Shown one piece after another: positions 1 to 28,110 of a stretch of DNA of 34,193 nt. The stretch is from a virus, in IMG/VR virus record IMGVR_UViG_3300045988_182940, positions 1 to 34,193 of that record; one strand, given 5' to 3'. Every line of letters begins with the position of its first letter. Within the stretch, counting starts at the first letter, position 1. Both the position numbers and the translations under genes were made by a program. The notes under the pieces are model-generated. The model was not told where the DNA came from. It ran no database searches and saw nothing but the letters and a program-made list of their open reading frames with translations.

Positions 1-119
1 GCTTTTTTGTTATGGAGAAAGCATTATGGCGGAAGAGTTCAAAAAGACCGGACTTATGGACGGAATGGGCGAAAACAATGATGACGACGATTTCAAAAAC
101 GACCCCGAGGGCGGCGGGA
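1..119. repeat. Terminal direct repeat, copy 1 (identical to 34075-34193)
   Basis: gcttttttgttatggagaaagcattatggcgg...gagggcggcggga was read at both ends of the window. Confidence 0.97.
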
Positions 120-937
120 ACAAAGCACTTCGTTTGCCGTTCGCACTGTGCAAAGCAAAGGGCATAAAGATACAGGATTGGTGGACACCTCGCGACGCTT
201 GGAACGCGTTAAAGAACGGCGGATATGTCGAAGATGTGGACGAAGAATACGCTAAACACTTGAAAGAAGAAAAGCGCGAGAAAGATAAAAAGTGGCGCAA
301 AGAGAACCCCGGGCGTGTTGCCATGTGGAAAAAGCGCGCCGAAATCAAGAAAGCGCAACTCAAAAACCCCGAGCATAATCCGGATAAGAGTTATATTCAC
401 GAGGACGGTAAGATTGCCGGTGCCGCCAAAGGTAAGCCGATGACGTTTGAACAGGCGGACAGCGGAAGCGTAAATCCCTATTATGGAACGGAGCAAATCG
501 GCTATGTAACCAACTGTCAAACTTGCGTGGCAACGTTTGTTGCTCGAAAACTCGGCTACGATGTAAAAGCATTGCCGAACCTCAACAACAAAAACATAGC
601 AGACCTATCGCATAATGTATCGCTTGCTTATCTCGATAAAGACGGAAATCACCCGAAACAAGAAAGTAGCGACGGCTCGTTAATGAGCGAACCCGGAAAG
701 ACGTACGCGTTGCGTTGGGCTTGGAAAGGCAGAAGTTCGGGACATATCGTCCTGATGATGAACGACGGACAAGGAACGTATTTATATGACCCGCAAACGA
801 ACACGAAGTATAGCGGCAAATCGGCATATTCGTTCATATCTCGTGGTTATGGTTTCAAAAAAATGGATTTGACCGATTGCACAATCGATGAAAAATTCTG
901 CGATAAAATCATGAAAGGAGTAAAGAAAAATGGATGA
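26..937 (+). CDS. Late effector/toxin candidate with a charged N-terminal half and a C-terminal papain-fold Cys-His-Asp domain (Tox-PL1/glutamine-deamidase-like; a CHAP or NlpC/P60-type hydrolase is the alternative)
   Basis: GGAG lies 8 nt upstream of the ATG. Motifs: NPYYG..GYVTNCQTCVATFVARKLGYDVKALP (Cys164), SSGHIVLMM (His240), YLYDPQ (Asp255). The N-terminus MAEEFKKTGLMDGMGEN is shared with the 1142 gene. Confidence 0.55.
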   Translation: MAEEFKKTGLMDGMGENNDDDDFKNDPEGGGNKALRLPFALCKAKGIKIQDWWTPRDAWNALKNGGYVEDVDEEYAKHLKEEKREKDKKWRKENPGRVAMWKKRAEIKKAQLKNPEHNPDKSYIHEDGKIAGAAKGKPMTFEQADSGSVNPYYGTEQIGYVTNCQTCVATFVARKLGYDVKALPNLNNKNIADLSHNVSLAYLDKDGNHPKQESSDGSLMSEPGKTYALRWAWKGRSSGHIVLMMNDGQGTYLYDPQTNTKYSGKSAYSFISRGYGFKKMDLTDCTIDEKFCDKIMKGVKKNG

Positions 938-1130
938 AATAAAAACACTCGTCGAAGAACTCGGCGCAAAGTCTTATAAAAAAGGCAAATCGTGGAACGG
1001 TTACGAGGTGTATATTCCCGTTTATACCGGTAATCCTTGTGTAGGCTTGCCTCTCGTGGTGCTTGTAAAGGGCGGCAAAGCAAGAATAAGCAACGCCAAA
1101 GAGGCAATTGATTACCTCAATTACGAATAA
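930..1130 (+). CDS. 66-aa protein translationally coupled to the papain-fold gene; candidate immunity or cognate partner
   Basis: The start overlaps the upstream stop (ATGGATGA). AAAGGAG lies 9 nt upstream. No TM segment or signal peptide. Confidence 0.5.
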   Translation: MDEIKTLVEELGAKSYKKGKSWNGYEVYIPVYTGNPCVGLPLVVLVKGGKARISNAKEAIDYLNYE

Positions 1131-1141
1131 ATCGGAGAAAC

Positions 1142-2071
1142 ATGGCAGATGAATTTAAGAAAAGCGGTTTGTTGGACGGCTTAGGTGAAAACGACGAAAT
1201 AGAACGTTGGATAACGGTCAAAGGCAATCACGTTCCGATAAAGAAAGGACAGTCGCAGGAAGAAGCAATCAAGCAGGCTTTCGGAGAAGCGGAAAAGACG
1301 CCCGAAATGAAGAAAAGCGGGCATATGGACGGCTTGGGAGAGTATAGCGAGAAAACTTCGGATGATACCGCCGAATCGGGATATAAAAGCGTAGACACGA
1401 AAACGTTTGTAAACACGCTGGCGGAAGCAAAAGCAACTGTTGCCAAAGACCGCCCGCAAGACGCTTGGAGAGTTTCGTCCCCGAATAGCGCAGTGTTTGA
1501 CGAAGAACATCCGAATGCAAAGAAATACACCACTCCCGGCGGAAGCACCGTTGCTATAACGCCCGACGGAGATATAGTGGCGGTTTGTAAGAGTACAAAC
1601 GACAGTTTGCACGGCAAACAGTTAATACAATTTGCAGTAAAGAACGGTGGGAACAAGTTAGACGCTTTCAGTGGATTGTGGAAGTTTTACACGCAGAACG
1701 GTTTTGAGCCTGTTTCGTGGACGCATTTCGTTGATAAAGAAGATGTGCGCCCCGACGATTGGAAACCCGAATACGGGAAAGAACCAGTTGTATTTTACAA
1801 ATATACAGGCAAAGCGACAAACGAATCACTTGAAGATTTTAAAAACAGAGTGCCGGAGAGCAAAGACTACTTTGCGGCGCAGAAAATAAGAGATGACCAA
1901 ATAAACGGAAAAGTCAAAGGGGTACATGCTATGACAAAAGAAAAAGAAGAGCAAATTAAGAGATTGGCAAAAGAAAAAGGTTTATCTTTTGCAAGCGCAA
2001 AGCGGATGCTTGAAGAAATGGAAGCGGATGATTTTGATTACGAACAATATATGGCTGAAATAGCATATTAA
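1142..2071 (+). CDS. Late effector candidate with a GNAT-like (acetyltransferase-fold) central domain and two copies of the shared leader motif
   Basis: GGAG SD. MADEFKKSGLLDGLGEN at residues 1-17 and EMKKSGHMDGLGEY at residues 55-68. Core STVAITPDGDIVAVCK...GKQLIQFAVKNGGNKLDAFSGLWKFYTQNGFEPV resembles GNAT motif A/B. Confidence 0.45.
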   Translation: MADEFKKSGLLDGLGENDEIERWITVKGNHVPIKKGQSQEEAIKQAFGEAEKTPEMKKSGHMDGLGEYSEKTSDDTAESGYKSVDTKTFVNTLAEAKATVAKDRPQDAWRVSSPNSAVFDEEHPNAKKYTTPGGSTVAITPDGDIVAVCKSTNDSLHGKQLIQFAVKNGGNKLDAFSGLWKFYTQNGFEPVSWTHFVDKEDVRPDDWKPEYGKEPVVFYKYTGKATNESLEDFKNRVPESKDYFAAQKIRDDQINGKVKGVHAMTKEKEEQIKRLAKEKGLSFASAKRMLEEMEADDFDYEQYMAEIAY

Positions 2072-2113
2072 AATCAAAAGCAAATATGGTTAAAAAACAG
2101 GAGGTAAAGAAGA

Positions 2114-2359
2114 ATGAAAGAAGTTGCTCCTACTTACGAAGAATTTTACAAAGAAGTAAAAGAGGGCTTTCGTTTTTGGTGGAAGAGCCTTTCCGAAAAA
2201 GAAGTCGATGACTATTTACATTCAGAAGAAGCACAAGAAGAAATCAAGTATAGATATAACGAAAATCTGAACGAGTTTAACAAAGGCGAAATTGACCGCA
2301 AAACGTTTATGATAGGTGGCGCAAGTTCAGTAGCATACTGCTTGCAAATGATGTACTAA
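2114..2359 (+). CDS. Hypothetical 81-aa protein downstream of the GNAT-like gene
   Basis: ORF track; AGGAGG SD 8 nt upstream. Confidence 0.6.
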   Translation: MKEVAPTYEEFYKEVKEGFRFWWKSLSEKEVDDYLHSEEAQEEIKYRYNENLNEFNKGEIDRKTFMIGGASSVAYCLQMMY

Positions 2360-2372
2360 GGAGAAAAAGGGA

Positions 2373-2522
2373 ATGAAAACATACTATGTATACGATACGC
2401 AGACGGACGAGTTTCTTTGTGAGGTGCGTGCATGGTCGGTGGTAGACGCCGAAATAAGAGCGTGCAAACAATTGAACAAAGGAAGCGACGATGTTTATGC
2501 GTTCACGGAGAAATTATACTAA
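2373..2522 (+). CDS. Hypothetical 49-aa protein (MKTYYVYDTQTDEFLCEVRAWSVVDAEIRACKQLNKGSDDVYAFTEKLY), below the ORF-track size cutoff
   Basis: Translated by hand. GGAGAAAAAGGG lies upstream of the ATG at 2373. It is tightly packed between neighbouring genes. Confidence 0.45.
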   Translation: MKTYYVYDTQTDEFLCEVRAWSVVDAEIRACKQLNKGSDDVYAFTEKLY

Positions 2523-2722: not shown

Positions 2723-2890
2723 TTACTTTTGCAAAGATTTAAGATACTGTTCAATCAGGAAGAGGATATATTCGGGTGGCTTTCTCGTCCCTTGCTCCCA
2801 ATTTCGGATAGTAGCAACGGGTACGTGAACAAGCAAAGCGAATTTACTTTGCGATAGCCCGGTAGAGGCTCGGAGTTCTTTAATCGTCAT
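2723..2890 (-). CDS. 55-aa XRE/MqsA-like helix-turn-helix protein (MTIKELRASTGLSQSKFALLVHVPVATIRNWEQGTRKPPEYILFLIEQYLKSLQK); last gene of the reverse cassette
   Basis: Translated by hand (below the ORF-track cutoff). AGAGGA SD 7 nt upstream. Classic HTH pattern LSQ..FA.....(V)..I..WE.G.R.P. Confidence 0.8.
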   Translation of the reverse strand: MTIKELRASTGLSQSKFALLVHVPVATIRNWEQGTRKPPEYILFLIEQYLKSLQK

Positions 2891-2901
2891 AGTTTAATCC
2901 T

Positions 2902-3117
2902 CTAATTTTCTTCGTATGCGTCGTTAAAACTTTCGGTTGAAAAATCGCTTTCGGTGCTTTGCTTGTACAAATCAATCTTATATTGGCTATATAGTTCTTC
3001 AACCGCTTCGCGCAAAGTTAAATCGTTTTTCTTTGCATAACTTTTTACTTCCTTACTATCCTTTTCGCTTAGGTAACAAGTATAAGTTACCGTTGCTTTA
3101 ACTTCGACTATAATCAT
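2902..3117 (-). CDS. Hypothetical 71-aa protein with an acidic C-terminus (ESDFSTESFNDAYEEN)
   Basis: ORF track. AAGGAG SD. The stop lies 11 nt before the HTH gene start. AT-rich codon usage. Confidence 0.6.
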   Translation of the reverse strand: MIIVEVKATVTYTCYLSEKDSKEVKSYAKKNDLTLREAVEELYSQYKIDLYKQSTESDFSTESFNDAYEEN

Positions 3118-3171
3118 TTTTCATACTCCTTTAATAGTCCGTCAATAATTTTATGAAAACTATAATATGCC

Positions 3172-3528
3172 TCAGACTGCTGTCCATTTTGTTATTAAAA
3201 ATATATCGTCAAATGCGCGAATAGAATATCTTCCGTTTAATGCGTATAATCTGTGGTTTTCTGCTATTGGATGATTATTGTCGATACCGTCGCAATCGTC
3301 AATCAAGATATGAGCGTTATTAAATCTTGCCGTGCCTAAATAATTGCTGTTATGCTCATAGTCTATGTTTTGATTTTTGCAATAATTTTCAAGTTCTTCG
3401 TAATTATCAAAAATGATAGCATACGTGTTTCCGTCCTCGCCATTTTGTTTTGGATAAGCAATAACATTGCCGTTTCCGCAATCGATTGCTAAACTACTTA
3501 TGTCGCTGTATGTGTCTATAACTTTCAT
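3172..3528 (-). CDS. Hypothetical 118-aa acidic, N/D-rich protein
   Basis: ORF track. AAGGAG SD. AT-rich compared with the flanking phage genes. Confidence 0.65.
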   Translation of the reverse strand: MKVIDTYSDISSLAIDCGNGNVIAYPKQNGEDGNTYAIIFDNYEELENYCKNQNIDYEHNSNYLGTARFNNAHILIDDCDGIDNNHPIAENHRLYALNGRYSIRAFDDIFLITKWTAV

Positions 3529-3575
3529 AATTTACTCCTTGCTTGCGTTTGACCGCACAAGCGCGGTTAATTATT

Positions 3576-3896
3576 TTAAGCGACGAAAATTTTTCTGTCG
3601 CATTTAGCCTGAGTTTTCTTTCCATAAAGCGAATACCACTTATCAGCCGTCGAGGTTATAAGCGTTTGCGCTTTTTCATTGTCGTTAGCAAAAACAGCTT
3701 CAAGGATATCTTTAACAGCACTTTCGCTTTGTTCGACAGAGTGGTTATCGTCATATCCGAAGTAATCGGCAAGGTTATACAGCTCTTGCATAAACCACTT
3801 TTCAACTTTAAGCTCGCCGCGCTTTGCTTTCCCGTAGATAACGCTTATCTGTCCTTTGCTGAACTCCGTTGCTTTCTGATAACCGTACTGCTTCAT
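3576..3896 (-). CDS. Hypothetical 106-aa protein, first gene of the reverse cassette, with a possible N-terminal HTH-like segment (QKATEFSKGQISVIYGKAKRG)
   Basis: ORF track; GAGGAG SD 6 nt upstream of the ATG at 3896. Confidence 0.6.
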   Translation of the reverse strand: MKQYGYQKATEFSKGQISVIYGKAKRGELKVEKWFMQELYNLADYFGYDDNHSVEQSESAVKDILEAVFANDNEKAQTLITSTADKWYSLYGKKTQAKCDRKIFVA

Positions 3897-3945
3897 TTTA
3901 AGCTCCTCGGACGATTTATTTCGTCCATTTGTTTTATCTGTCTAT

Positions 3946-3974
3946 ATTGTACCACATTGACATATATTTGTCAA
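3946..3974 (-). promoter_or_regulatory. Near-consensus leftward promoter for the reverse cassette (TTGACA-17-TGgTACAAT)
   Basis: On the minus strand, -35 TTGACA = 3974-3969, a 17-nt spacer follows, and -10 TACAAT = 3951-3946 preceded by TGg. Confidence 0.65.
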
Positions 3975-4402: not shown

Positions 4403-4861
4403 ATGCCAAAAAAGAAAAATTCAGAGCCGAAGGAGCGGTACAGAGCCGAGTGGTTAGGTCAACCGCTAACCGCCGAGGAAGCGCGAGCAAAAGGCAAGGC
4501 GGGCGGCATTAAGTCGGGACAGGTTCGTAAAGAGAAAAAAACGCTAAGAGAAACGATGAAATTGCTTCTTAAAGAGCAGTTCAAATTCAACAATCCCGTA
4601 ACGGACGAGTTCACAAGCGGCGACGGTTATGCTATGTGGTGCGCACAGGTAACGGCAGGCGCATTAAAAGGCGACAGAAAGTGCCTTGAATACCTGCGTG
4701 ATATTATCGGGGAGAATCCGTCCACCAAAGTTGTTGGTGCGGAAGAAGAGCCGCTCCGTAAGGTGGAAATAGAGTTTGTAGACAAAAGCAAGCGTTCTAA
4801 AACGGAAAGCGACCCGAAAATAGTCGGAGAGCAAAGTCCGACCGTCAGCGATGAAAGTTGA
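4403..4861 (+). CDS. terS: Terminase small subunit (probable)
   Basis: 152 aa, directly upstream of and overlapping terL. Basic N-terminus with KGKAGGIKSGQVRKEKK, a pattern common in small terminases. Confidence 0.6.
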   Translation: MPKKKNSEPKERYRAEWLGQPLTAEEARAKGKAGGIKSGQVRKEKKTLRETMKLLLKEQFKFNNPVTDEFTSGDGYAMWCAQVTAGALKGDRKCLEYLRDIIGENPSTKVVGAEEEPLRKVEIEFVDKSKRSKTESDPKIVGEQSPTVSDES

Positions 4862-6287
4862 GATTGCGGACGTATATGAACCTGCGTTCGATATGTCCAC
4901 GCCGAAATGTTGTAAAAACCTATGGTATGCGCCGAGAGCGTGCGGCAAATCGTCAGCGTTAGGTCGTATCTTATGGCTGTATTACATTAGCTTTCCCGAT
5001 TATGACGTGGCGATAGGCGTAGACAGTCTTACAAACGCGGGCGACGGCGTATTAAGCGAGTTTCAGTCGTTCCTTGAAAGCGAGAACCTTGCGGACGATT
5101 GGATATTCAGTGCCAAATCGTGCTATATGAAAGGCGCGCGTAATCAGATACGCTCGTATGCTGTTCAGACGAATAAGTTAGACAACGTGAACGCAACGAA
5201 GTCGAAGAAGCTCATACGTCCTGTTTCGTTGTTCGTAATGGACGAAGTGCAGAAGTTGCATAACAAAGGAATTTTGGATAACTGTTTATCCACGTTCTTA
5301 CGACAGATGAAAGCAGGGCATAGCAAGGTTATCCTTGCAGGAAACCCCGACCGTGCGGCGATGTGGTTTGATGACTACTACAAAGTCAAGTCGGAAGATG
5401 ACGAGTGGACGGTTATAAAGCCGACATATCTCGATATCATAGCGTGGCTTCCCGACGCTTTAATTCACGAAATCGAGATGATGAGAAAAACCGACCCGGT
5501 GTCGTACGCTCAAATATACTTAGGCGACCTCGAAGTAGCGGGCTGGGAACAAACGTTTCATTCGTTTATCGAAAGAGAGCATTATATTCCGAGAGAAGAG
5601 TTACTTGCCGCTCCGCAAAAGACGGGCGATATGCTTCACTCTATCGTTATCGGCATAGACGACGCGGAAAGCCAAGACGCCATAGCGGGCGAAGCCGTTA
5701 TGGTGCAGAGAAACGGACATATGAAAGTCAACGAGGGATTGTATCGCTCTTGCAAGGAATTACCGGTAAAGCCTGCACTTACGGAGCGGTGTGATATCGT
5801 AGCAGAGTATCTCGACTATATACAGGCGCATTTCAATCCCGAGCGTGCGATACCGATAATAATGGTGTTCGACTGCGCAAGCGGTATGTATAGACAAATG
5901 GCGGTTATGAAACGGACAGACCGCAATTTTATGAGGTGGAGAAACGTGTTATTAAAGCCTTACACAACCAAAGGAGAGAAAGAGGAACAATTGGACGAAG
6001 TAAACACGGCGTTTGCGAACGGGATATTGAAAGTCGTAAACGTAGACAGGTATTCGCCGAAGTATTCAAACGCTATGCTTGTCAAACAGATAAAAGCGTT
6101 GCGGTACTTGGACAACAAGAAGATAGACCCGACCATTCCGAACGACTGTACGGACGCATTGCAGTACGCGGTTATGACCGTGCTTGCGAATCCGTATCGT
6201 TTGTCGTTCCCGGAAAGACGCGCTATTTACGACGCGGACAACGGAGCGGAAACGTTCCTCGAAAAACTGAAATATGGAGAACTGTAA
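4851..6287 (+). CDS. terL: Terminase large subunit
   Basis: 478 aa. Walker A-like PRACGKSS, Walker B LFVMDEV, AGNP coupling motif, and the nuclease-domain acidic motif VIGIDDAES. Confidence 0.9.
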   Translation: MKVEIADVYEPAFDMSTPKCCKNLWYAPRACGKSSALGRILWLYYISFPDYDVAIGVDSLTNAGDGVLSEFQSFLESENLADDWIFSAKSCYMKGARNQIRSYAVQTNKLDNVNATKSKKLIRPVSLFVMDEVQKLHNKGILDNCLSTFLRQMKAGHSKVILAGNPDRAAMWFDDYYKVKSEDDEWTVIKPTYLDIIAWLPDALIHEIEMMRKTDPVSYAQIYLGDLEVAGWEQTFHSFIEREHYIPREELLAAPQKTGDMLHSIVIGIDDAESQDAIAGEAVMVQRNGHMKVNEGLYRSCKELPVKPALTERCDIVAEYLDYIQAHFNPERAIPIIMVFDCASGMYRQMAVMKRTDRNFMRWRNVLLKPYTTKGEKEEQLDEVNTAFANGILKVVNVDRYSPKYSNAMLVKQIKALRYLDNKKIDPTIPNDCTDALQYAVMTVLANPYRLSFPERRAIYDADNGAETFLEKLKYGEL

Positions 6288-6640
6288 TGAGATTAAGAGA
6301 GTTTTTGAACGGCGATATAGCATACACGCGTGCGGAGAAAGAGATACGCGAATGGGTAGAAACAGCATATCCGGGAATAAGCATAGAATTTTATCCGCAC
6401 TTGGAGCTTGTGCGAACGAATAAGCGTGCTATATCCGAAAGACGTTGCAGAAAGATAACCGAAGTGGTCAATATCAAGATAGGCGAGATATTGGAGAAAC
6501 ACTCGGAAGAAATCTACATCGGGGAGCGGTTAGACCGTATCTGGAAGAAACACCCCGAGTTTGACGCGGAAGTCGAGAGTATAGACGACATAAAGAAAAA
6601 CCCGCTCTTTCTCTCGTACCTGAAAGAGTTGATAATCTGA
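6287..6640 (+). CDS. Hypothetical 117-aa protein between terL and portal
   Basis: The ATG overlaps the terL stop (TAATG). This is the in-frame tail of the 5936 ORF. Confidence 0.55.
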   Translation: MRLREFLNGDIAYTRAEKEIREWVETAYPGISIEFYPHLELVRTNKRAISERRCRKITEVVNIKIGEILEKHSEEIYIGERLDRIWKKHPEFDAEVESIDDIKKNPLFLSYLKELII

Positions 6641-6641
6641 G

Positions 6642-8348
6642 GTGCTTATGGAAATTATAGACGATAAAAATTTTATGCCGCTCGGAGTTGGGAGCGAATT
6701 ATCCGCAGACAGTTTCAAAGTCGTGCAGTATTCAAACACATACTTGCTTGCCGCTCCGCGTTATTACACTTTTTACGCTTCGTATATCAAGCCTCTTGTC
6801 GGAATGTATACGGGCTGGATAGAGGGTTTCCACAATCTCGACTACGGCGTTATACCGACAAAGTTCTTGCAGAAGATAGGCAACGGGATAAAGAGCCTTT
6901 TGTTCTCGAATCCCGTCGTGCTTAACTCGTACAATCCCGACACGAACAACATAATCGATACGAAGTTCAAGAAAAAGAGCAATTTCGACAATGCAAAAAT
7001 CGAAGCGTACGATTTCTGCGAGGCAGGCGGTACGGGACTGTTAAAGCTCAATCGCGACGGTAACGGTGATTTGCGGTTTGAAGCAATACCAATGGACAAG
7101 TTCTTTATCGAAGTTGACGGCTACGGAGATATAGAGCGCGTTAAGTGCTTTATAGCGACTTATCACGACACTATATCGGCGACGACAGAGTATCACTTAT
7201 GCGAGGAGCGGTTCTTCAAATACACAACTATCGGAAGCGTTAAAAAGCGTTTCCCAATGGTGCATTATACGGTTTATCAGACCACGACGAATATTACATA
7301 CGACGCTGTACCGACAAACCCCGTGCGTTGGGCAGACGTTCCGCCCGAAGTAAGAAACAGCCTTAAACGCGATTACGGCGAAATCGATATAGACAAAACC
7401 GACGCATACACGATGACGAACGATTCGTCAAGGCAGTACGCAACAATGTGGCAGAACTGCACGCTGTTACCATTCGACGACGATTTAGGCGTAAGGCTGA
7501 TAAAATTCACTCGTAATATTCCGTCGTTTCCGAAAATGCCGTTCGGTATGCCGCTTGCGGACTTTCTGCAAAACGAACTGTATCAGTATGAGCAGTTAAA
7601 ATTCTTCGAGCGTGTGGAAGTATATACGGCACGCGCAAGGGTAATGATGGACGACTGCAACAGCAACCCGAACGACCCCGAAGAAAGACGGCGTGCGCTT
7701 GACCCGATAATCTTCAATTACTACGAGAATTTACTTAACGGCGAGAAAGACGGCAAGCCGCTCCCGATACAGCCTGAACTACGAGCGGACGAGATAAAGA
7801 CGCAAAAACAGAATATTTTGAACGACACGGCGGCGGCACTCGGGTTATCGAGTACTACGATAGCAAGTTGGCTATCAGACGGCACGACGCAGAAATCCGC
7901 TACGGAAATCAAAGCGGGACGAAGCAACACCGAAACGTTCATCAAAGACAAGATAGGTATCATATCACAGCCCTTGCAGGACTTGATTGATATCTATTTT
8001 CATTATTACGGGGTCGAGGCTCCCGAAATGCGTATTATGCCCGTAAGCCAAGAGATACAGGCAGAAGAGATACAGCAGTACGCAGAATTGTACGACGGCG
8101 GAAAGGTTACTGCTCGTATGCTTGCCGAAAAGATACTCGGCACTAACTCTTACAGGGAAACAAAAGACCTCGAAGAATTTATTATTTCTCACAGTAACAA
8201 AGCGCAAATGCCAATGGGCGGCGGTTTACCGCAAGAGAGCGGAGCGGCGGAGAACCCAAAACCGACGACTCAAAACACAAATGCGACGTTAAATAAAACA
8301 GCACAAGGAGGGCTGGCTAATGGCACTGATAAAATCAATGTTGGATAA
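6642..8348 (+). CDS. Portal protein (probable); the ATG at 6648, with GAGG 5 nt upstream, is the likelier start
   Basis: About 566 aa ORF after terL and immediately before the scaffold and capsid genes. The call rests on size and position only. Confidence 0.7.
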   Translation: MLMEIIDDKNFMPLGVGSELSADSFKVVQYSNTYLLAAPRYYTFYASYIKPLVGMYTGWIEGFHNLDYGVIPTKFLQKIGNGIKSLLFSNPVVLNSYNPDTNNIIDTKFKKKSNFDNAKIEAYDFCEAGGTGLLKLNRDGNGDLRFEAIPMDKFFIEVDGYGDIERVKCFIATYHDTISATTEYHLCEERFFKYTTIGSVKKRFPMVHYTVYQTTTNITYDAVPTNPVRWADVPPEVRNSLKRDYGEIDIDKTDAYTMTNDSSRQYATMWQNCTLLPFDDDLGVRLIKFTRNIPSFPKMPFGMPLADFLQNELYQYEQLKFFERVEVYTARARVMMDDCNSNPNDPEERRRALDPIIFNYYENLLNGEKDGKPLPIQPELRADEIKTQKQNILNDTAAALGLSSTTIASWLSDGTTQKSATEIKAGRSNTETFIKDKIGIISQPLQDLIDIYFHYYGVEAPEMRIMPVSQEIQAEEIQQYAELYDGGKVTARMLAEKILGTNSYRETKDLEEFIISHSNKAQMPMGGGLPQESGAAENPKPTTQNTNATLNKTAQGGLANGTDKINVG

Positions 8349-8988
8349 ATTGATTGCCGAACTGAAAAAAGCACCTCCCGAGGTAAAGAGCGAACTTAAA
8401 AGCGCACTCGGCGAGGAAACCGTAACCGCTCCCGAAGTTAAGGAAGAAACCGAAACGGACGGAAACGGCGAAAACAGCGCAGAAAAGGAAGTTGCAACCG
8501 ACGAAACGCAAGCAACCGAGGAAACGACCGCAGAAGAAGAAACGCCCGAAAATGGCGAAAATACGGAGCCTGAGAAAGAAACCGAAGAAGAGGAAACCGA
8601 AGAAGAGGAAACCGAAAAGGTCAGAACGGAAGCTCCCGAAACGGAAGAAGAACCGGTTATGCAGAAAGGCGTTGAAGCGGAAGAGAGCGACGACACGGGC
8701 GACGGAGAAACCGAAGCGATAGCGGAAACCGCTCCCGAAGAAACCGAAGAGGTCGAGGGCAACATTCCCGAAATGCGCAACGAACCTGCCGTAGAAGAAT
8801 CGGAGATGCCTGCCGATTACGAGGCTATTATTGACGGCTTGAACGCGAAAATACTTGCGTTACAGGCTGAAAATCAGAAGTTAAAGGCAAAAACCGAGGG
8901 TGCGTTCGGGTATTCGTCCAAAATCGGCGGAGCGGTTAAACACAACTGCCTGTATGACGATTGCGACGGATTGAAAATGCACAAATAA
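8320..8988 (+). CDS. Scaffolding protein (probable), highly acidic and E/T-rich with a C-terminal coiled coil
   Basis: Lies between portal and capsid. ETEEEETEEEETEK low-complexity region and LNAKILALQAENQKLKAK helix. GGAGGG SD. Confidence 0.6.
   Translation: MALIKSMLDKLIAELKKAPPEVKSELKSALGEETVTAPEVKEETETDGNGENSAEKEVATDETQATEETTAEEETPENGENTEPEKETEEEETEEEETEKVRTEAPETEEEPVMQKGVEAEESDDTGDGETEAIAETAPEETEEVEGNIPEMRNEPAVEESEMPADYEAIIDGLNAKILALQAENQKLKAKTEGAFGYSSKIGGAVKHNCLYDDCDGLKMHK
8578..8619 (+). repeat. 15-nt tandem repeat (gaaaccgaagaagag, about 2.8 copies) inside the scaffold gene
   Basis: Read directly; encodes ETEEE ETEEE ETEK. Confidence 0.85.
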
Positions 8989-9009
8989 TTTTTCAGGAGA
9001 ATAAAAAAC

Positions 9010-10287
9010 ATGTCACTTTTTAACCTTAACAACCAGCAGGTCGCAAGACTGACCTCTAAAACCGTTTACAAGAATCTGTATCAGGATATTATCCACAAGG
9101 ACGGATTCGGTATCACCGACAGATTCGTAACCCCCGAACAGACCAAAGCCGCAATGATTGATATTTTCGTCCCGATTCCTATCGGCGGCAGATTCCGTAT
9201 GCGCGGCGCAAGCTCCAATGGCGAATGGGCTAATACCAACAACGCGCCCAACGCGAACAAACAGCGCAATCACGTTCTGTCAAGACGTTTCACTATCGAT
9301 ATCCTCAAAAGATACGACTTCAACATTGCCGTTTCTGAGGACGAAATCGAAATGACCGGAGCGGCAAGCCTCAACGAATCGTTCGAGCAGATTTGTCGTG
9401 AACAGATTGAGCAGGATATCGCAATCAACATAAACGGCTATACTTTCGCGGCACAGGTGTTTGCGTTCTTCACCGAATCGTTCGCGGCGGCTTACGCAAA
9501 AGGCTCTTCGGCGGCGGCGACGGATATTACCGACGCAGAAGTCAAAGCGGCACTCGAAAAGTACACTTACGATTCGACCAACAGAACGGGCGCAATCCGT
9601 GCGTTCAAGATTTCCAACGCAAAAGTAAGCAAAGGCGACAGCAAACTGTATGCGGATTACTTCCCGGCAGACGCAAGACAGGCGTTCCTGTTCGACCCGA
9701 TTTATCTTGTAGACCTTTCCGAAACCGCTTCGATGTCCGCTTCCGACGTTGCAACCCGTATGCTTGCAGGCGGCGGAATGAACGCGTTCACTTCCGAGAA
9801 AAAGACCGTTGCAGACTTCCAGAAAGGCTATGTCGGTTGGCTCGACGGTATGCCTTTGTATGAAGTAAGCCAGCAGGTCAAAAATGCCGCTTGGTATTAC
9901 TTGGGACTTGACACGACCGATGACGCAACCGTTATAGGATATCTCAACGATATTCAGGCGATGATTGCACCTGCAAACGCAACCGTTCGCGGACTGCGCC
10001 CCACTTCGTTCAAAACCGTAGACGACCCCGATACTCAGGGCGTCATTATTCAGCCTAAGGTCAATATGGGCGTTCGTTGCCTTTCCGGTACCGCTCTTAA
10101 ATGCGTCGTGTCCGGTACCGAGTGGACGGGTGCCACTTCCAACGTGGACAACGCAAAAACCACTATCGTTGCTATTCTCAAAGCAATCAATATGGTTCTG
10201 CCCAACCTCTCGTACGACAACGACAACAAGGTCGCACAGGCTTCCACTTTGACCTCTAAGGCAGACGGAACTCAGACCCTTGCGTAA
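9010..10287 (+). CDS. Major capsid protein (probable)
   Basis: 425 aa ORF directly after the scaffold, with an AGGAG SD. Size and position are typical. A stem-loop follows the next small gene. Confidence 0.7.
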   Translation: MSLFNLNNQQVARLTSKTVYKNLYQDIIHKDGFGITDRFVTPEQTKAAMIDIFVPIPIGGRFRMRGASSNGEWANTNNAPNANKQRNHVLSRRFTIDILKRYDFNIAVSEDEIEMTGAASLNESFEQICREQIEQDIAININGYTFAAQVFAFFTESFAAAYAKGSSAAATDITDAEVKAALEKYTYDSTNRTGAIRAFKISNAKVSKGDSKLYADYFPADARQAFLFDPIYLVDLSETASMSASDVATRMLAGGGMNAFTSEKKTVADFQKGYVGWLDGMPLYEVSQQVKNAAWYYLGLDTTDDATVIGYLNDIQAMIAPANATVRGLRPTSFKTVDDPDTQGVIIQPKVNMGVRCLSGTALKCVVSGTEWTGATSNVDNAKTTIVAILKAINMVLPNLSYDNDNKVAQASTLTSKADGTQTLA

Positions 10288-10633
10288 GTTAAACCTTTTT
10301 GGAGAAGATACAAGTCGGCTCGTCGGTGTGCTTTACGGGCATAACGGGAGCGGAAAAGTCTATAACTATTTAGGCAAAAAAACGCTCAGAACGGGCGACT
10401 TGGTTACTCCGGAAGTTACTCACCCGGTATCGGGTAAGACTTACAAAACACTCGGCAGAATAGTGTACACGCGCGACGCAAACGGTGCGCCTGCCGAACA
10501 AACACTCGACAAATTATCCGACGAATTTGTTATGCTCAAAACATTAGGTTCGACCGACCAACGGTCACTGCCCGGCTACTACCCCGGGTGGGGAGATGAC
10601 ACAATGCACAAGCTTAACACGTTCGGCGAGTAA
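10280..10633 (+). CDS. Hypothetical 117-aa protein, with a TTG start overlapping the capsid stop, or a later GTG start
   Basis: ORF track. No clear SD. The N-terminal KLNLFGED and C-terminal KLNTFGE motifs resemble each other. Confidence 0.45.
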   Translation: MRKLNLFGEDTSRLVGVLYGHNGSGKVYNYLGKKTLRTGDLVTPEVTHPVSGKTYKTLGRIVYTRDANGAPAEQTLDKLSDEFVMLKTLGSTDQRSLPGYYPGWGDDTMHKLNTFGE

Positions 10634-10659
10634 TTACTCTCCATTTTCCCCTATTAAAG

Positions 10660-10690
10660 GAGCGGCGGTTTCCCTCAATTCCCGTCGCTC
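10660..10690 (+). other. Stem-loop after the capsid block (9-bp stem including one G-U pair, 13-nt loop); possible partial terminator or RNA-processing site
   Basis: GAGCGGCGG (10660-10668) pairs with CCGTCGCTC (10682-10690). There is no strong U-tract. Confidence 0.3.
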
Positions 10691-10753
10691 TTATGCCGTT
10701 AAGAGTATAGCCGTGCAACTCGGCAAAACGGCAACAACACACGGAGGTTTATT

Positions 10754-11215
10754 ATGTTAGATACCACATATCCGCTCAGCGACGACGCAATGGTGTACGA
10801 CTACACCAAACACAGATACATACTCACGCCTGAGTACGTGCTTAACAATCTCGGCATAGACTTATACGAGAAAATGGGCGGCAAACGTACGGTCAATACA
10901 ACTACGGCTATAAACGTGCTTTTGGACAACCGCATTTCGTTCAAGATTTATTCGGCGATATACGCTCATCAGGACAAGCAACTTATGGAGTATATCCTTG
11001 CGAAAAGTCCGTCTGCGCGTAAAGTCCTGCTCGAAGCAATGAGTAATCAATTGCTCGACCTTGTAACTTACGGCGAAAAAGAGAAAGAGCAAGTTTCTCA
11101 AACCACTTATAACGCGCTTTTACAGCCGATAGACGAAACGGGCAAGTCGGTTTTGTATAGGATTTACAGAGGTTTTTTAACCTACATCCCGACTTACGAA
11201 GAGGGGCATTACTGA
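10754..11215 (+). CDS. Hypothetical virion protein, possibly a head-tail connector/adaptor (by position)
   Basis: 153 aa; GGAGG SD; first gene after the capsid block. Confidence 0.4.
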   Translation: MLDTTYPLSDDAMVYDYTKHRYILTPEYVLNNLGIDLYEKMGGKRTVNTTTAINVLLDNRISFKIYSAIYAHQDKQLMEYILAKSPSARKVLLEAMSNQLLDLVTYGEKEKEQVSQTTYNALLQPIDETGKSVLYRIYRGFLTYIPTYEEGHY

Positions 11216-18228: not shown

Positions 18229-19122
18229 ATGCTTATAGTACTTGACCAAAATTACCGTCCGATAGCGACGAGCGATATGACCATAACGCAGGGTGACGCG
18301 GCACTCGGCAGACTGCTTGTCGTCGCTCCGCCTGCGGTCGGAATTGCGGCTTCGTTTCAATTGCCCGATGAAACGATAACGCAAAAATATCCGTTGTTTA
18401 TGAACCCGGCAAAAGTTCCTGACGAAGTGGATTCCTATGTGTATTCGCTGAACGTAAAGAGCAATATTTTTTCGGGCGTTTCGGGTAAACTGCTGATACA
18501 ACTTTGGATATCCATACCGTACGCAGACCCGAATCAAGAGTTCACGTCTATTACAGGCGCGGCAGAAACGGCGCAAGAGTTTTCTGTTGACCCGATAGAA
18601 ATGAACGTGCTTCGAGGTGCGGTAACTATCCCGCAGGTCGGCAAAGACATACCCTCGGACGAAACGTGGACGGCTCTTTTGAACGGCATTGCTACTCTCA
18701 ATTCGGTAGTGTCGGATATGTCAAAACATTCCGTCAAAGCGATTTCAGGCGTTGAGGACATGTGGATGCTTGGCACGGGCTATTACAAACTACTTGTCGG
18801 AGGGCTGATAAGACTTAAACATTTAAGTACCACAGACGCGTTGTGGGACAAAAACGAAGATATGCTCGTGTGGGTAGACAACAAAACGGGCAAGAACGCA
18901 ACGTTTATCGCAATGAACGCTCCAAGCAGGGACAGCACGGGGGCAATGCCGAGTAATCCGACGTTTATCTACGGTTATTCGTACAAAAACGGTTCGGCTT
19001 ATTCTCGTAAAACTTTTGAGCTTAAAACCTATGCGGAGCCGTACAAGGCAGGCTACGGAATAGCGATAGAGAACCAAACTATAAGCGTAAATTTGCCCGT
19101 AGCGGAAACACAGAGTGTATGA
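18229..19122 (+). CDS. Tail/baseplate protein (297 aa), BppU-like N-terminus (weak)
   Basis: GGAGG SD. The N-terminal segment ...MTITQGDAALGRLLVVAP recalls baseplate-upper-protein N-domains. Confidence 0.4.
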   Translation: MLIVLDQNYRPIATSDMTITQGDAALGRLLVVAPPAVGIAASFQLPDETITQKYPLFMNPAKVPDEVDSYVYSLNVKSNIFSGVSGKLLIQLWISIPYADPNQEFTSITGAAETAQEFSVDPIEMNVLRGAVTIPQVGKDIPSDETWTALLNGIATLNSVVSDMSKHSVKAISGVEDMWMLGTGYYKLLVGGLIRLKHLSTTDALWDKNEDMLVWVDNKTGKNATFIAMNAPSRDSTGAMPSNPTFIYGYSYKNGSAYSRKTFELKTYAEPYKAGYGIAIENQTISVNLPVAETQSV

Positions 19123-19132
19123 GGAGGAATGT

Positions 19133-22100
19133 ATGGCAGATTGGATAATCAAAGATACAACGCTCCGAAGAATAGCGGATAAGGTTAGAGGTCTTAACGA
19201 TTCGGGCGCAAAAATGCTTGTTAAAAACATAGCAGATAATATTCCCGAAAAGCAGGATAAGAGCGTTGCTATTACCGAGAACGGCACGCAAACCATAAGA
19301 CCTGATAACGGTAAGATTTTAGGCGACGTTATTATCGAAACCAATGTCGAGGGCGACAATAAACCCGAACAGGCAAAGACGATAAACGTCACGGCAAACG
19401 GCACGCAAACTGTCAAGCCTGATACGGGGAAAACATTATCGCAAGTAACTGTAATAACCAATGTTGAGGGGCGCGAAGTTGTTTTGCAAGAAAAAACTGT
19501 TACACCTACGCAGGAGCAACAGCAAGTCCGCCCCGATACAGGATATAACGGTTTAAGCCAAGTAACGGTTGAAGCAATTCTCACAGAAGAAAAAACTGTT
19601 ACGCCTGCCGCAACGGAGTTTTATGTTTTGCCGACTACGGGTAAATACCTTACTCGTGTAAAGGTAAATGCCGTACCGGCGGAAGAGAAAACGATTACCT
19701 CGAACGGCACGTATGAGCCGAGCGACGGTAAATTTCTTTCCAAAGTGGTTGTAAACGTTCCAAGAGCAGAAGCACAAGTAAAAACCGTAACAGTTACCGA
19801 GAATAATAAAACAACTTATGTATTCCCGGACGAGGGAAAAACTCTGTCGCATGTGGTTATCAACACAAACGTACCCGGTACGGATTTTACAAAAGTAACG
19901 GCAGTGCCTGCGGATGTTGTTTCGGGTAAAGCTTTTTACGACAAAAACGGCTCGTTAGCATATGGCACAATGCCACAGTACAACGGCGAATATTTCGCAG
20001 GTCTTTATCCGCCGACCATAAGCATTGCAGATAATACGCTTATGTGGGAAGCGGTTTTGGATGCCGACGGATATAAAATATATAAACAGACAAGCTCATC
20101 TTCATATGAACTTATCGCAGAAATAACCGCCACTGAATACGATTTGTTGAACTTGGCTGTTGGAAATTATACATTGTGTGTTACTGCGTTTACGGTCGAT
20201 TTGGAAACGCCAAACAGCAACGCCGTCAATTGGGTAAAGGCAAAAATAGAATACACGCTTACGAATACGTCGCTTTTGAGCGCACCCGGATATTTTACAA
20301 CAAATACGCCTGCGACAATAACGTTTAATAAGGCGTTTGGGTATACATATCCGTCAACGCCCGTTGTGGTTTCGGCACAGCTCGATTCGTACAGCAACGG
20401 CGTTTTGGTTTTATCGTCGCCTAACAATATGAGCGTTAGCGTTACGGCGAACGGTGTAAAAGATACGAGTGCAACCATTACAGCTGGTTCTTACAAATTT
20501 AAAGTTGACCCGACCGCAATACGGTCAAATCTTACCGAAGATATTAACTTTACGGCGAATGGGGCAAGCTATACTGCTTTGAGTGCATATTCGAGCGGCA
20601 ATATAGATTACCGAAACGGAGATACTGTTGTACAGGCGTATAACGGGACTACTTGGAGCGATTCTCGCACTATAACAGTAACAAGCACTGCGCACGTGAG
20701 TGCTGATTTCCTCGCGTGGTTCAATAACGCAATGGAGCAAAAGCTCGGCGCACCTGTTATCAAAATTACGGGTGCTGTCGTTTCGTGGACAGCGGTTGCA
20801 AATGCGACTTCTTACGAAATACGCTTTGGTGTCACAACTCTTGCAACTACGAGCGGCACTTCGTTCAATATTTCTACTTATGGTAAGACTATGGGCGCAG
20901 GCTCGCACAATATTACCGTTATAGCGAAAGCAAACGGTTTTGCAGATAGCTCCGCGAGCAATGCTGTTACCTATACCGTGTACAGGCTGACAACGGCGGC
21001 GGATTTTCGCTGTCAAGCTATCGACAGATATTCTGAATTGTTCTCGTGGGACTATATGGACTCTCACGCAACAGGTGGCATAGTTTACGAGGAGTCGGAA
21101 GGCGGTTATACGCAGATAGCAGAGCATACGCGTGACGGCGTTTCCGTGCAATTGCCGTATTCAGGACCGTTCACTATCGGCGCGCATACCTATGTATGCA
21201 AGCTTGTAGATTCTACGGGAGTGTATGACGATAGCAATTACAGCGACGCTATTACGGTTTCTGTGTATGCTTTGACATGGAACGTAGCGGGCGCAAGCAA
21301 GCCTACACAGACATATGCGCTCGGCAATGCTTCGTCCAATTTTTACACGATAACGCCCGATTCGGGTAATGAATTGCCCGAAGCAATCGAGGTGCAAGGT
21401 TTATCAACCTATACTTGGAGTGTTAGAAGCAGTGGCAACGGCACGTTCTCGTTTGATTCTGCGAATATAAATGCGGCGACTTATGCGAGCGGGATTGTGG
21501 TAACTATTAACGCGACAAAACAAGCGACCATTGCCGCAGGCACTTATGTTTGGACGACAGACCCCACGCTTTCTTCAACTTTGGTAGAAGCGAATTTCAA
21601 TTTCACAAGTGGCGGCACGAGCTATACGAAGCTATCTTCGGGCAACAACGATTTTATCAAATATAACGATACTACCGTATATTCGATGTCGGGCGGCGCA
21701 ACATGGACACCTGCTACGGCGCAAACTATCACCGTAACGACCGAACAAAACGTTCCGCAAGACGTGTACAACTTTTTCTTCGGCGGTAGTTTATTGAAAC
21801 AATTAGCTCAACCGGTCATTGCGGCATGCGAAAGATTTATGTTTTGGAATAGAGTTGAAAATGCAACTCAATATTCGTTTAGCGTAACACAAGGTTCTAA
21901 CACGTATGATTTCGGAACAATATACGACATACACAACTTCGTAGAAGCAAAAGCGGCAAACTACAATTTCAATAATAAAAAAATTTCGCTGACGGAGGGT
22001 GATTACAATTACAAAGCACCTTTTGCGGGTAATACCGTCAGAATTATGTTTACCAACAGTTGTTACTTTGAAATTTTCTGCGGAGCAGGCATAACACTGT

Positions 22101-22300
22101 CGTATTATGACTCGGATACAAGTATGCCAAGTACGATTGCAAATGGTTCGTTCAATACGCCTATAAGCTTTACGTTCGGTGATACGGGCGAGCTGTATGT
22201 AGAAAAGTTCTTGCTCGGACAAGGCATATCGCCGTCGTCATTTGCGGAAATAACACCCGAAGAGTTCAAAGCAGGCATAACACTCAACTTTGATTTATAA
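19133..22300 (+). CDS. Tail fibre or receptor-binding protein (about 1055 aa) with six tandem beta-repeats and three FN3-like modules
   Basis: ATG at 19133 with GAGGAGG 5 nt upstream. Repeats of the form K(T/S)VT.T.NGTQTV.PD.GK.LS.V.V.TNV. FN3-like W..V..A..Y.I motifs (LMWEAVLDADGYKIY, VSWTAVANATSYEIRF, FWNRVENATQYSFSV). Confidence 0.75.
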   Translation: MADWIIKDTTLRRIADKVRGLNDSGAKMLVKNIADNIPEKQDKSVAITENGTQTIRPDNGKILGDVIIETNVEGDNKPEQAKTINVTANGTQTVKPDTGKTLSQVTVITNVEGREVVLQEKTVTPTQEQQQVRPDTGYNGLSQVTVEAILTEEKTVTPAATEFYVLPTTGKYLTRVKVNAVPAEEKTITSNGTYEPSDGKFLSKVVVNVPRAEAQVKTVTVTENNKTTYVFPDEGKTLSHVVINTNVPGTDFTKVTAVPADVVSGKAFYDKNGSLAYGTMPQYNGEYFAGLYPPTISIADNTLMWEAVLDADGYKIYKQTSSSSYELIAEITATEYDLLNLAVGNYTLCVTAFTVDLETPNSNAVNWVKAKIEYTLTNTSLLSAPGYFTTNTPATITFNKAFGYTYPSTPVVVSAQLDSYSNGVLVLSSPNNMSVSVTANGVKDTSATITAGSYKFKVDPTAIRSNLTEDINFTANGASYTALSAYSSGNIDYRNGDTVVQAYNGTTWSDSRTITVTSTAHVSADFLAWFNNAMEQKLGAPVIKITGAVVSWTAVANATSYEIRFGVTTLATTSGTSFNISTYGKTMGAGSHNITVIAKANGFADSSASNAVTYTVYRLTTAADFRCQAIDRYSELFSWDYMDSHATGGIVYEESEGGYTQIAEHTRDGVSVQLPYSGPFTIGAHTYVCKLVDSTGVYDDSNYSDAITVSVYALTWNVAGASKPTQTYALGNASSNFYTITPDSGNELPEAIEVQGLSTYTWSVRSSGNGTFSFDSANINAATYASGIVVTINATKQATIAAGTYVWTTDPTLSSTLVEANFNFTSGGTSYTKLSSGNNDFIKYNDTTVYSMSGGATWTPATAQTITVTTEQNVPQDVYNFFFGGSLLKQLAQPVIAACERFMFWNRVENATQYSFSVTQGSNTYDFGTIYDIHNFVEAKAANYNFNNKKISLTEGDYNYKAPFAGNTVRIMFTNSCYFEIFCGAGITLSYYDSDTSMPSTIANGSFNTPISFTFGDTGELYVEKFLLGQGISPSSFAEITPEEFKAGITLNFDL
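19259..19879 (+). repeat. Six imperfect tandem coding repeats, each about 30-39 codons long
   Basis: Residues 49-255 of the 19115 ORF. Repeated strings include aacggcacgcaaac...cctgata. Confidence 0.8.
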
Positions 22301-24626: not shown

Positions 24627-24634
24627 GGTGAACT

Positions 24635-27927: not shown

Positions 27928-27985
27928 AATTTTTCTCCATAGACAAAAAAACTAAAAATATTTTCATTAAATTAACTAAAATCGC

Positions 27986-28014: not shown

Positions 28015-28053
28015 ATAGGTGTAAACAAGGTAAAGCAAATGCAGTTGATTTCA

Positions 28054-28082: not shown

Positions 28083-28110
28083 CAAGATTTACAAAAAGGA
28101 GGTGTTCTAA

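Follow-up and report, generated by a model that had tools for sequence, protein, structure and literature searches.

Phage polymorphic toxins of the MuF family in which a Tox-PL1 domain forms the C-terminus have been described previously (Zhang et al. 2012, PMC3482391; Jamet et al. 2017, PMC5576092), with the domain defined by an NC-H-DxQ signature (PMC3482391). MuF toxins have been proposed to act as effectors that are packaged in the phage head and enter the next cell with the DNA (PMC3482391; PMC5576092; PMC5512222), and T4 Alt is a head-packaged protein that is injected in this way (PMC5512222). Imm35 has been reported as an immunity family for Tox-PL1 and SUKH immunity proteins are also listed with it, while the Tox-PL1 row of the published toxin table names no immunity family (PMC3482391). 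In Escherichia coli, the toxin Cpe1 is a papain-like cysteine protease that is delivered through type VI or contact-dependent systems and is paired with the immunity protein Cpi1; it cleaves GyrB and ParE at double-glycine motifs (PMC12136450). Here we describe a gene pair in a 34,193-nucleotide stretch of viral DNA (IMG/VR record IMGVR_UViG_3300045988_182940), which we refer to as the window. The first open reading frame (ORF1) encodes a 303-residue protein with a C-terminal Tox-PL1 domain, and the second (ORF2) a 66-residue partner. We put at roughly 60% the probability that they constitute an enzyme-inhibitor ('toxin-immunity') pair of the polymorphic-toxin kind, MuF-less and carried by a temperate phage of gut Clostridia.

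The Tox-PL1 domain of ORF1

ORF1 (26–937, plus strand) is organized as an N-terminal peptide, an N-terminal module, a helical linker and a C-terminal Tox-PL1/Gln_amidase catalytic domain at amino acids (aa) ~130–300 (413–925), as delimited with Pfam, alignment and Foldseek. A first-pass annotation of this DNA had reported a papain-fold Cys-His-Asp domain with a coupled partner at 434–1130, an interval that covers the C-terminal domain together with ORF2, although the ORF1 gene itself begins at 26. The ORF1 residues quoted there are present, and the proposed Cys164/His240/Asp255 arrangement is borne out by the codons read from the sequence (aac tgt for N163-C164 at 512–517, cat for H240 at 743–745, and gac for D255 at 788–790, with D255-P-Q257 spanning 788–796) and by an alignment of 99 homologues of 47–83% identity in which N163, C164, H240, D255 and Q257 are invariant. 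These residues reproduce the published NC-H-DxQ signature. The family that had been proposed for this arrangement, papain-fold toxin 1, is also the one recovered by profile searching: PF15644 (Gln_amidase, 'Papain fold toxin 1') matches ORF1 with 32.9 bits against a gathering score of 24.1 (E = 1.5e-7), over aa 162–259 and profile positions 1–113 of 114. The sole other Pfam match at E≤1 is to Synaphin, which is sub-threshold and compositional. ORF1 has 155 database homologues, with E values down to 1e-205 and nearly all of them ~300 aa long; many lie on ~30-kb contigs, the size of a whole phage genome, and many already bear a precomputed PF15644 label.

The AlphaFold model of ORF1 (mean predicted local distance difference test score, pLDDT, 88.5; predicted template modelling score 0.84) has a papain-like alpha+beta fold, and Foldseek places it among papain-fold effectors and toxins. 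Its neighbours in the PDB include YopQ, a ubiquitin clippase, the Cpe1 toxin-immunity pair 9L5U, AvrPphB, a CdiA-CT toxin, OspI and C39 peptidase domains. We considered whether the top match, 'YopQ', might be an SPbeta phage protein, and its 182 aa fit the Yersinia type III secretion protein instead. Matches in BFVD have E = 1e-16 to 1e-6, the best being a viral 'Minor capsid protein' (E = 1e-16); several others are labelled 'Papain fold toxin 1', one is a 'VIP2-like toxin' of mycobacteriophage Centaur, and actinophage proteins labelled capsid maturation protease, MuF-like fusion and capsid morphogenesis are also present. The profile match, the alignment and the predicted fold together show the last ~170 aa of ORF1 to be a papain-fold domain of the Tox-PL1/Gln_amidase family, with the predicted Cys-His-Asp triad intact.

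Comparison with the described systems reveals both similarities and differences. Tox-PL1 forms the C-terminus of MuF-type minor capsid proteins in cultured Bacteroides and Acutalibacter phages, and the 'Mu F-like' protein of Bacteroides phage p00 (Hankyphage) and the minor head protein of Acutalibacter phage Fontainebleau share with ORF1 the PF15644 domain and its NC-H-DxQ residues. Likewise, the genes lie in temperate phages, in or beside the packaging-head module, and p00 has a homologue of ORF2 abutting its Tox-PL1 gene. Among the loci related to ORF1 (designated by L numbers), the distant homologues L015 and L017 carry Tox-PL1 on proteins with Phage_min_cap2, so that the proposed association of this domain with the C-termini of MuF proteins holds for distant homologues and cultured phages; it does not extend to ORF1 itself, which has a different N-terminal module. 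No MuF-type domain (PF04233, PF06152 or Phage_min_cap2) is found in ORF1 in Pfam at E≤1, and none is recognised elsewhere in the window by the Pfam and PHROGs scans. In place of MuF or Phage_min_cap2, ORF1 has a 17-aa peptide and a module with a ~45-aa core, and unlike the MuF Tox-PL1 toxins its cassette has its own promoter and terminator.

The likeness to Cpe1–Cpi1 is structural. Entry 9L5U, which likely represents this pair judging from the entry title and the topic of the paper, is a neighbour of ORF1 with probability 0.98 (E = 8.5e-3); like ORF1, Cpe1 has a papain fold and a Cys-His-Asp triad, and it is neutralised by a small, adjacently encoded protein. Cpe1 differs in belonging to another family, in its Gram-negative type VI or contact-dependent delivery and in having a known substrate, and Cpi1 is unrelated to ORF2. 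The ORF1 profile also has a marginal match, in the GH..YDP region, to CdiA-CT chains of C. rodentium, which are relatives of Cpe1 (E = 0.27–0.85). The Shigella type III secretion effector OspI, a papain-fold glutamine deamidase of Ubc13, is a weak structural neighbour (E = 0.04), and unlike ORF1 it acts on a eukaryotic target and has no immunity partner. A published classification puts PF15644 near OspI, and the name 'glutamine deamidase' in Pfam is itself a prediction (PMC10318531).

The first-pass annotation had offered a second interpretation, that this is a CHAP- or NlpC/P60-like peptidoglycan hydrolase and that ORF1 is the phage's missing endolysin; a virion-associated lysin would be a variant of this reading. 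The observation behind it stands, in that no endolysin is recognised in any of the ~47 ORFs scanned with Pfam and/or PHROGs; moreover, papain-fold cell-wall amidases exist, and a type VI amidase effector (4bi3) and a viral 'peptidoglycan hydrolase' are found by Foldseek at E ~0.1. We nonetheless regard a muralytic role as extremely unlikely. In Pfam at E≤1 there is no CHAP, NlpC/P60, transglutaminase or amidase match for ORF1, leaving PF15644 as the only relevant match, and because there is no credible Pfam family besides Gln_amidase, ORF1 has no known cell-wall-binding domain. The gene is also in the wrong place for a lysin, as the membrane-protein genes at the usual lysis position (23814–26062) are ~11 kb away, measured over the circular junction, to 23 kb away, and a gene for a soluble partner is always alongside. 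Finally, phage Fontainebleau has the domain on its minor head protein and in addition a normal holin and N-acetylmuramoyl-L-alanine amidase, and the cassette survives in non-phage islands.

The ORF2 family and its linkage to Tox-PL1

ORF2 (930–1130, plus strand) overlaps the stop codon of ORF1, as had been pointed out from the letters alone; the overlap is 8 nt, with its ATG (930–932) and the ORF1 TGA (935–937) both within ATGGATGA. A GGAG ribosome-binding site, read from the sequence, lies within the 3′ end of ORF1 at 917–920, 9 nt before the ATG. The AlphaFold model, predicted with a 13-sequence alignment, is a confident alpha-beta4-alpha fold (mean pLDDT 90.5), and on the adjacency described below we regard ORF2 as a putative inhibitor or immunity partner. 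Searches with ORF2 of Pfam, PHROGs, PADLOC, PDB sequences and PDB folds yielded nothing usable. ORF2 contains no 19-residue stretch hydrophobic enough for a membrane helix, and the predicted lack of such a helix is consistent with a soluble protein acting in the cytoplasm. Because ORF1 has 155 homologues, ORF2 homologues abut the toxin gene in each of the related loci and the ORF2 model reaches a pLDDT of 90.5, both are real genes rather than chance ORFs.

A word-indexed protein search for relatives of ORF2 gave just 6, and then 12, proteins. The family was therefore recovered from the neighbours of Tox-PL1 genes in related loci, scanned with a local hidden Markov model (HMM), and the count of adjacency refers to 49 loci, each encoding a relative with a Tox-PL1 domain. 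In every one of the 49, the Tox-PL1 gene has a gene of the ORF2 family directly next to it, as judged by the HMM and profile-profile comparison together. The local HMM finds a family member touching the toxin gene in 42 of them; in the remaining seven, all distant Bacteroidota-type MuF fusions, there is an abutting convergent ORF of 77–103 aa, and profile-profile comparison identifies these convergent ORFs as homologues of the ORF2 family (probability 95.4%, E = 1.7e-8). In the co-oriented loci L001–L005 the called partner starts between a 4-nt gap and a 4-nt overlap relative to the toxin stop codon, and in the other co-oriented loci the mechanically listed partner ORF starts about −11 to +14 nt from it.

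This linkage is maintained across quite different carriers. It is seen with the N-terminal module of ORF1, with Phage_min_cap2/MuF proteins (L015, L017), with proteins having a 'WITxHP' N-terminus (L014, L018, L020) and with a metallopeptidase-containing carrier (L021), and it spans at least five bacterial phyla, with examples in Bacillota, Bacteroidota, Treponema, Gardnerella and Saccharibacteria. Nor is it confined to one orientation, since in L014, and within L038–L050 in many Bacteroidota MuF–Tox-PL1 loci and in the Gastranaerophilales locus L049, the partner gene runs antisense to the toxin gene and overlaps its 3′ end. The same arrangement occurs in the Hankyphage (Bacteroides phage p00, L057, BK010646; 2628–4349), where the partner is annotated merely as a hypothetical misc_feature. 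A partner on the opposite strand implies separate, antisense transcription inside the late operon. Linkage that is independent of carrier, phylum and orientation is as expected for a protein that physically deals with the domain, and we consider it very probable, from this comparative evidence, that ORF2 binds to Tox-PL1 and keeps this domain inactive in the producing cell. An inhibitor is in our view also the most economical role for the partner.

In two loci the association goes further. In L018 (6410–7309) and L020 (6493–7383) an ORF2-family domain of ~80 aa forms the N-terminus of a head-maturation protease (the protease part matching DUF2213 with E = 2.6e-40 and phrog_2229 with E = 2.4e-72), and the fusion gene is immediately 3′ of the gene for the Tox-PL1 protein. 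In phage Fontainebleau, the small protein in the partner position is not detectably a member of the ORF2 family, and because a different small protein is carried there, more than one partner family exists. Multiple partner families are usual for polymorphic toxins.

The earlier suggestion that the overlapping genes have the layout of a toxin and its cognate immunity gene is thus strongly supported as regards the partnership, but ORF2 falls into no catalogued immunity family, Imm35 included. ORF2 and Imm35 are alike in that both are small alpha+beta proteins encoded beside the toxin and proposed to inhibit Tox-PL1; they differ in that none of 22 ORF2-family members searched against Pfam at E≤1 matches Imm35 or any other immunity family. 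For this reason ORF2 appears to represent a partner family separate from Imm35 and present in none of the Pfam, PHROG, PADLOC and PDB libraries. We also note that four ORF2 homologues of 85–86 aa (P0122, P0124, P0125, P0126) carry an extension at the C-terminus (...DEMKPNDKLTGLGENE) similar to the peptide, described below, with which ORF1 and ORF3 begin (..GLxDGxGEN); the gene may have fused with the beginning of the following one, or the peptide may be used in a third place.

N-terminal elements, expression and genomic setting

ORF1 begins with a 17-aa peptide, MAEEFKKTGLMDGMGEN (26–76), which is repeated at the N-terminus of ORF3 (1142–1192), with a looser internal copy at aa 54–68 of ORF3. 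The ORF1 and ORF3 peptides are identical at 13 of 17 residues, and different codons are used for nine of these 13, so that it is the peptide itself, not the DNA, that is conserved; a recent DNA duplication is ruled out, as most of the conserved residues use different codons. In 19 of 20 database matches the peptide begins at residue 6–11, the exception being a 68-aa fragment (P0155) that was apparently called from an upstream start, and four of the 20 peptide-bearing proteins have no Tox-PL1 domain.

The peptide is followed by the N-terminal module (aa 20–79; 83–262), recognised from the family alignment and phmmer, with a ~45-aa core (..RLPFALCKakGIkIQDWWTPRDAWnALK..) that is conserved in the ORF1 family as strongly as the active site. 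A phmmer search of 1.84 billion cluster representatives gave 168 matches, in proteins of 58–1886 aa and mostly near the N-terminus. Pfam searches of 103 of these identified Gln_amidase in seven, an ADP-ribosyltransferase in three and an ADP-ribosyl cyclase in two, with single matches to HEPN, a metallopeptidase and DUFs. No Pfam family is common to the 103 proteins, and the module itself is therefore not in Pfam. The three module-bearing proteins seen in context adjoin genes for large terminase, portal, Phage_Mu_F and prohead protease. A constant N-terminal carrier with variable C-terminal toxin domains is a hallmark of polymorphic toxins, and at the level of sequence this is the pattern found here; we infer that the module is a trafficking domain.

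ORF3 (1142–2071, plus strand; 309 aa), in the same operon, consists of the N-terminal peptide, a 'ERWITVKGNHVPI' motif and a C-terminal domain. A similar 'WITxHP' motif lies N-terminal to Tox-PL1 in L014, L018 and L020. The C-terminal domain matches only phrog_2563, which is of unknown function, and comparison of ORF3 with the PDB gave nothing significant; by eye only, this domain is reminiscent of GNAT acetyltransferases. From its composition ORF3 is probably a second effector.

The sharing of a peptide by two genes of the operon bears on the alternative that ORF1 is a virion-assembly or 'releasing' cysteine peptidase that processes phage proteins, either the shared peptide of ORF1 and ORF3 or head proteins, with ORF2 timing its activity. 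The authors who defined Tox-PL1 proposed releasing or processing peptidases for some versions and suggested this for MuF-linked ones (PMC3482391). A peptidase role is in keeping with the three copies of a peptide motif selected at the protein level, the BFVD neighbours labelled 'capsid maturation protease' and 'capsid maturation protease and MuF-like fusion', the joining of an ORF2 domain to a head-maturation protease in L018 and L020, and the lack of a recognised prohead protease in the window. There is in addition some weak structural and sequence resemblance to C39 double-glycine peptidases: the C39 domain of PCAT1 is a weak structural neighbour of ORF1 (E ~0.05), and the homologue in L014 scores 17.8 bits against Peptidase C39, below the cut-off of 22, with no match for ORF1 itself. 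We nevertheless consider this decidedly unlikely. Considered as a C39-type double-glycine leader, the 17-aa peptide lacks the Gly-Gly site of C39 substrates; an assembly protease usually needs no dedicated stoichiometric inhibitor in every genome; intact ORF1–ORF2 cassettes persist where the capsid genes are gone; and duplicated or orphan toxin-partner pairs, as in L027, are typical of conflict systems and not of morphogenesis.

The cassette constitutes its own transcription unit. A putative sigma-70/SigA-type promoter (34035–34063, plus strand), with TTGACA, a 17-nt spacer, TAAAAT and a TG before the −10, agrees with the consensus at 11 of 12 positions, and the ORF1–ORF5 unit that it would serve extends to a bidirectional intrinsic terminator with a 12–14-bp stem at 2687–2719. 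The promoter spacer contains a palindrome, CACATA-gagaaa-TATGTG. Consensus promoters also precede the homologues in L002, L012, L013 and L026, and that of L002 has a different palindrome, CACGGG..CCCGTG, at the same place in its spacer. The 5′ leader can be read as a hairpin, AATGCTTT-(tttgttatggag)-AAAGCATT (34072–34099, plus strand), with a GGAG ribosome-binding site in the loop and the ORF1 ATG directly after the stem; its 3′ part is the same sequence as window 1–25. The hairpin is kept in L001 and L006, and L002 has a similar one. We considered whether the palindrome might be an operator common to this promoter and the repressor region, and it is absent from the 27900–28330 sequence.

Two copies of the −10 region with its flank, GAGAAA(A)TATGTGTTAWAAT, lie at a distance of 92 nt (33955–33967 and 34047–34059), and 33955–33967 is the only place where a related −10 element recurs. 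Between the copies (33940–34063 region) is a stretch rich in inverted repeats, GGTAGCGT...GCGAC-n13-GTCGC...AGCGTTACC, which could be an operator or a leader RNA.

The terminator at 2687–2719 is shared with a convergent four-gene unit on the minus strand (2723–3974), which has a near-consensus promoter (TTGACA-17-TACAAT with a TG) at 3974–3946. Its last gene (2723–2890) encodes a 55-aa helix-turn-helix (HTH) protein, and the other three products have no family match. The decayed prophage L001 keeps a homologue of this HTH gene, with 72% identity over 46 aa.

The position of the cassette varies among relatives. In the window, L002 and L012 it precedes the terminase genes; in L009 and L010 it follows the large terminase subunit immediately, ahead of the scaffold and capsid genes; in L011 it comes after the portal, and in L026 it is next to the tape measure. 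In this last locus, a 35-kb 'Eubacteriales' contig, the cassette lies within the region 5575–10775 between matches to aa 24–118 and aa 249–947 of the tape-measure-like protein encoded in the window, and from these matches appears to be inserted into the tape-measure gene or next to it. A close relative is represented in L001 by a decayed prophage, in which a C-terminal integrase fragment (95% identical) is joined directly to the cassette promoter beside a tRNA cluster; the promoter, ORF1, ORF2 and a truncated ORF3 are retained, with only ORF1 and ORF2 and their promoter intact. L004 has a similar cassette island between sporulation genes and clpB. L027 encodes a 302-aa toxin and its partner, followed by a 170-aa ORF consisting of the toxin domain only, with its own partner; this tandem arrangement is seen once, and there is none in the window.

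These observations bear on a third alternative, in which ORF1 and ORF2 make up an addiction or abortive-infection module that acts inside the cell, akin to a toxin-antitoxin system, with expression from the prophage promoter and no packaging. ORF2 would be the labile component, so that when the element is lost, or when another phage infects, the enzyme would be released and the cell arrested, with the effect of stabilising the prophage or protecting the population. An autonomous unit with overlapping genes, a consensus promoter containing a possible operator palindrome and a strong terminator would be well suited to such a role, as would the persistence of intact cassettes and promoters in decayed prophages and small chromosomal islands (L001, L004, L027); the product of a gene next to the cassette in L027 also reads like MazF/PemK, by eye from the translation only. 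While these features favour an addiction or defence module, we think this reading unlikely. There is no match to any PADLOC defence model. Type II antitoxins have a DNA-binding domain and are usually encoded upstream of the toxin, whereas ORF2 is downstream of the enzyme gene, matches no Pfam family (DNA-binding or other) and lacks a significant neighbour in the PDB. Most occurrences of this domain and partner are on MuF-type minor capsid proteins in late operons, where an addiction role is unlikely, and the N-terminal elements shared with other packaging-module proteins would be left unexplained.

The remainder of the genome was mapped from PHROGs and Pfam scans of the ORFs. The first 119 nt of the window are an exact repeat of the last (34075–34193), and the window is therefore a circularly closed genome of ~34,074 bp or one with a direct terminal repeat; the repeat interrupts the ORF1 leader and start. 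The gene map is that of a temperate phage, with an integrase (26313–27551, minus strand) and a repressor-like HTH protein (27577–27927, minus strand), a Gam-like protein (28910), an exonuclease (29416), a replication initiator (31221), a single-stranded DNA-binding protein (32430) and a transcriptional-activator-like gene (33516–33917). The ORF1–ORF2 cassette begins just past the start/end junction, between these regulatory genes and the packaging genes. Large terminase (4851–6287) and portal (6642–8348) genes are followed by structural genes to ~26062, the majority without a family match. Among them, a tail-fibre-like protein of 1061 aa (19115–22300) is composed of many short repeats (VTxxxNGTxxVxPDxGKxLSxVxV..), with a weak match to GH85_C as its sole Pfam match. 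The usual lysis position before the integrase is occupied by three membrane-protein-like ORFs (23814–24626, 24635–25102 and 25103–26062).

The closest full-length genomic relatives of ORF1 are in metagenome-assembled genomes of Christensenellaceae and 'Eubacteriales', and sporulation genes adjoin some related loci; the host is for these reasons probably a gut member of the Clostridia, Christensenellaceae-like. A blastn search of window 1–2400 against 50,697 records of cultured phages gave no match, and Rfam and tRNA scans of the window were both empty.

Proposed role of the pair and implications

The enzyme-inhibitor reading that we prefer can be set out as follows. ORF1 and ORF2 would be translated together from their overlapping genes, and the N-terminal peptide and module would do the job of MuF, directing ORF1, and ORF3 likewise, into the phage head. 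The enzyme would then enter the next cell along with the phage DNA and there cleave or deamidate a cytoplasmic host protein, with cells expressing ORF2, whether lysogens or cells that keep the cassette, being protected. We see about an even chance that this delivery route, with the N-terminal elements in place of MuF, is correct. T4 internal proteins carry an N-terminal capsid-targeting sequence, and the head-packaged proteins of T4 offer a parallel to ORF1 and ORF3, in that a short N-terminal element is common to unrelated accessory proteins; this is a functional analogy only, with no sequence relationship between them.

A head-packaged effector is favoured by the MuF and minor-capsid fusions, the fusion of the partner to a protease, the positions in virion modules and the shared N-terminal elements, whereas an addiction or defence module is favoured by the autonomous promoter and terminator and the persistence in decayed prophages. 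The two are compatible, as a lysogen expressing ORF2 would resist the enzyme delivered by sibling virions.

Several points weigh against the proposal as a whole. The cassette is self-contained, with a consensus promoter and a terminator, and a convergent operon lies between it and the packaging genes; such a unit is closer to a 'moron' or an addiction module than to a structural gene. In Pfam, ORF1 lacks a MuF domain, and the roles that we suggest for its N-terminal elements are guesswork. No known immunity protein is similar to ORF2, and a strictly conserved neighbour of this kind could instead be a chaperone or a loading adaptor. Moreover, of the nearest characterised structures to the ORF1 model, some are proteases (Cpe1, C39) and one, OspI, is a deamidase.

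The Tox-PL1 domain, its fusion to MuF and the logic of toxin and immunity are already in the literature. What apparently has not been catalogued in the libraries and literature searched is the ORF2 family and its universal linkage to Tox-PL1, the fusion of the partner to a prohead protease, the antisense arrangement in Bacteroidota phages including the Hankyphage, and an architecture that lacks MuF but has an N-terminal peptide and module in common with other proteins. One may speculate further, and here we are tentative, that phages of gut Clostridia load interchangeable effectors without MuF by means of a MAEEFKKTGLMDGMGEN-like peptide and/or the ~45-aa 'LPFALCK..WTPRDAW' module acting as capsid-targeting elements not described before, and that the ORF2 family is a universal, likewise undescribed Tox-PL1 inhibitor that silences the enzyme during assembly and protects lysogens. 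Some phages would then have built the ORF2 domain into their prohead protease, and a role of ORF2 in lysogen protection would explain its separate transcription from the opposite strand in Bacteroidota phages such as the Hankyphage.

Phage-borne polymorphic toxins were predicted from genomes between 2012 and 2017. ORF1 is a compact (303 aa), MuF-free Tox-PL1 effector by our reading and should be easy to express; the ORF2 family occurs in cultured Bacteroides phages such as the Hankyphage, in which genetics is possible; and there are two candidate N-terminal address tags common to different effectors. For annotation, the consequence is that the ORF1 gene should not be called an endolysin. If ORF2 does inhibit the enzyme, it would provide a handle for purifying the active form and finding its substrate, and a packaging function of the N-terminal elements, if borne out, would account for the delivery of proteins together with the DNA by phages that lack MuF.

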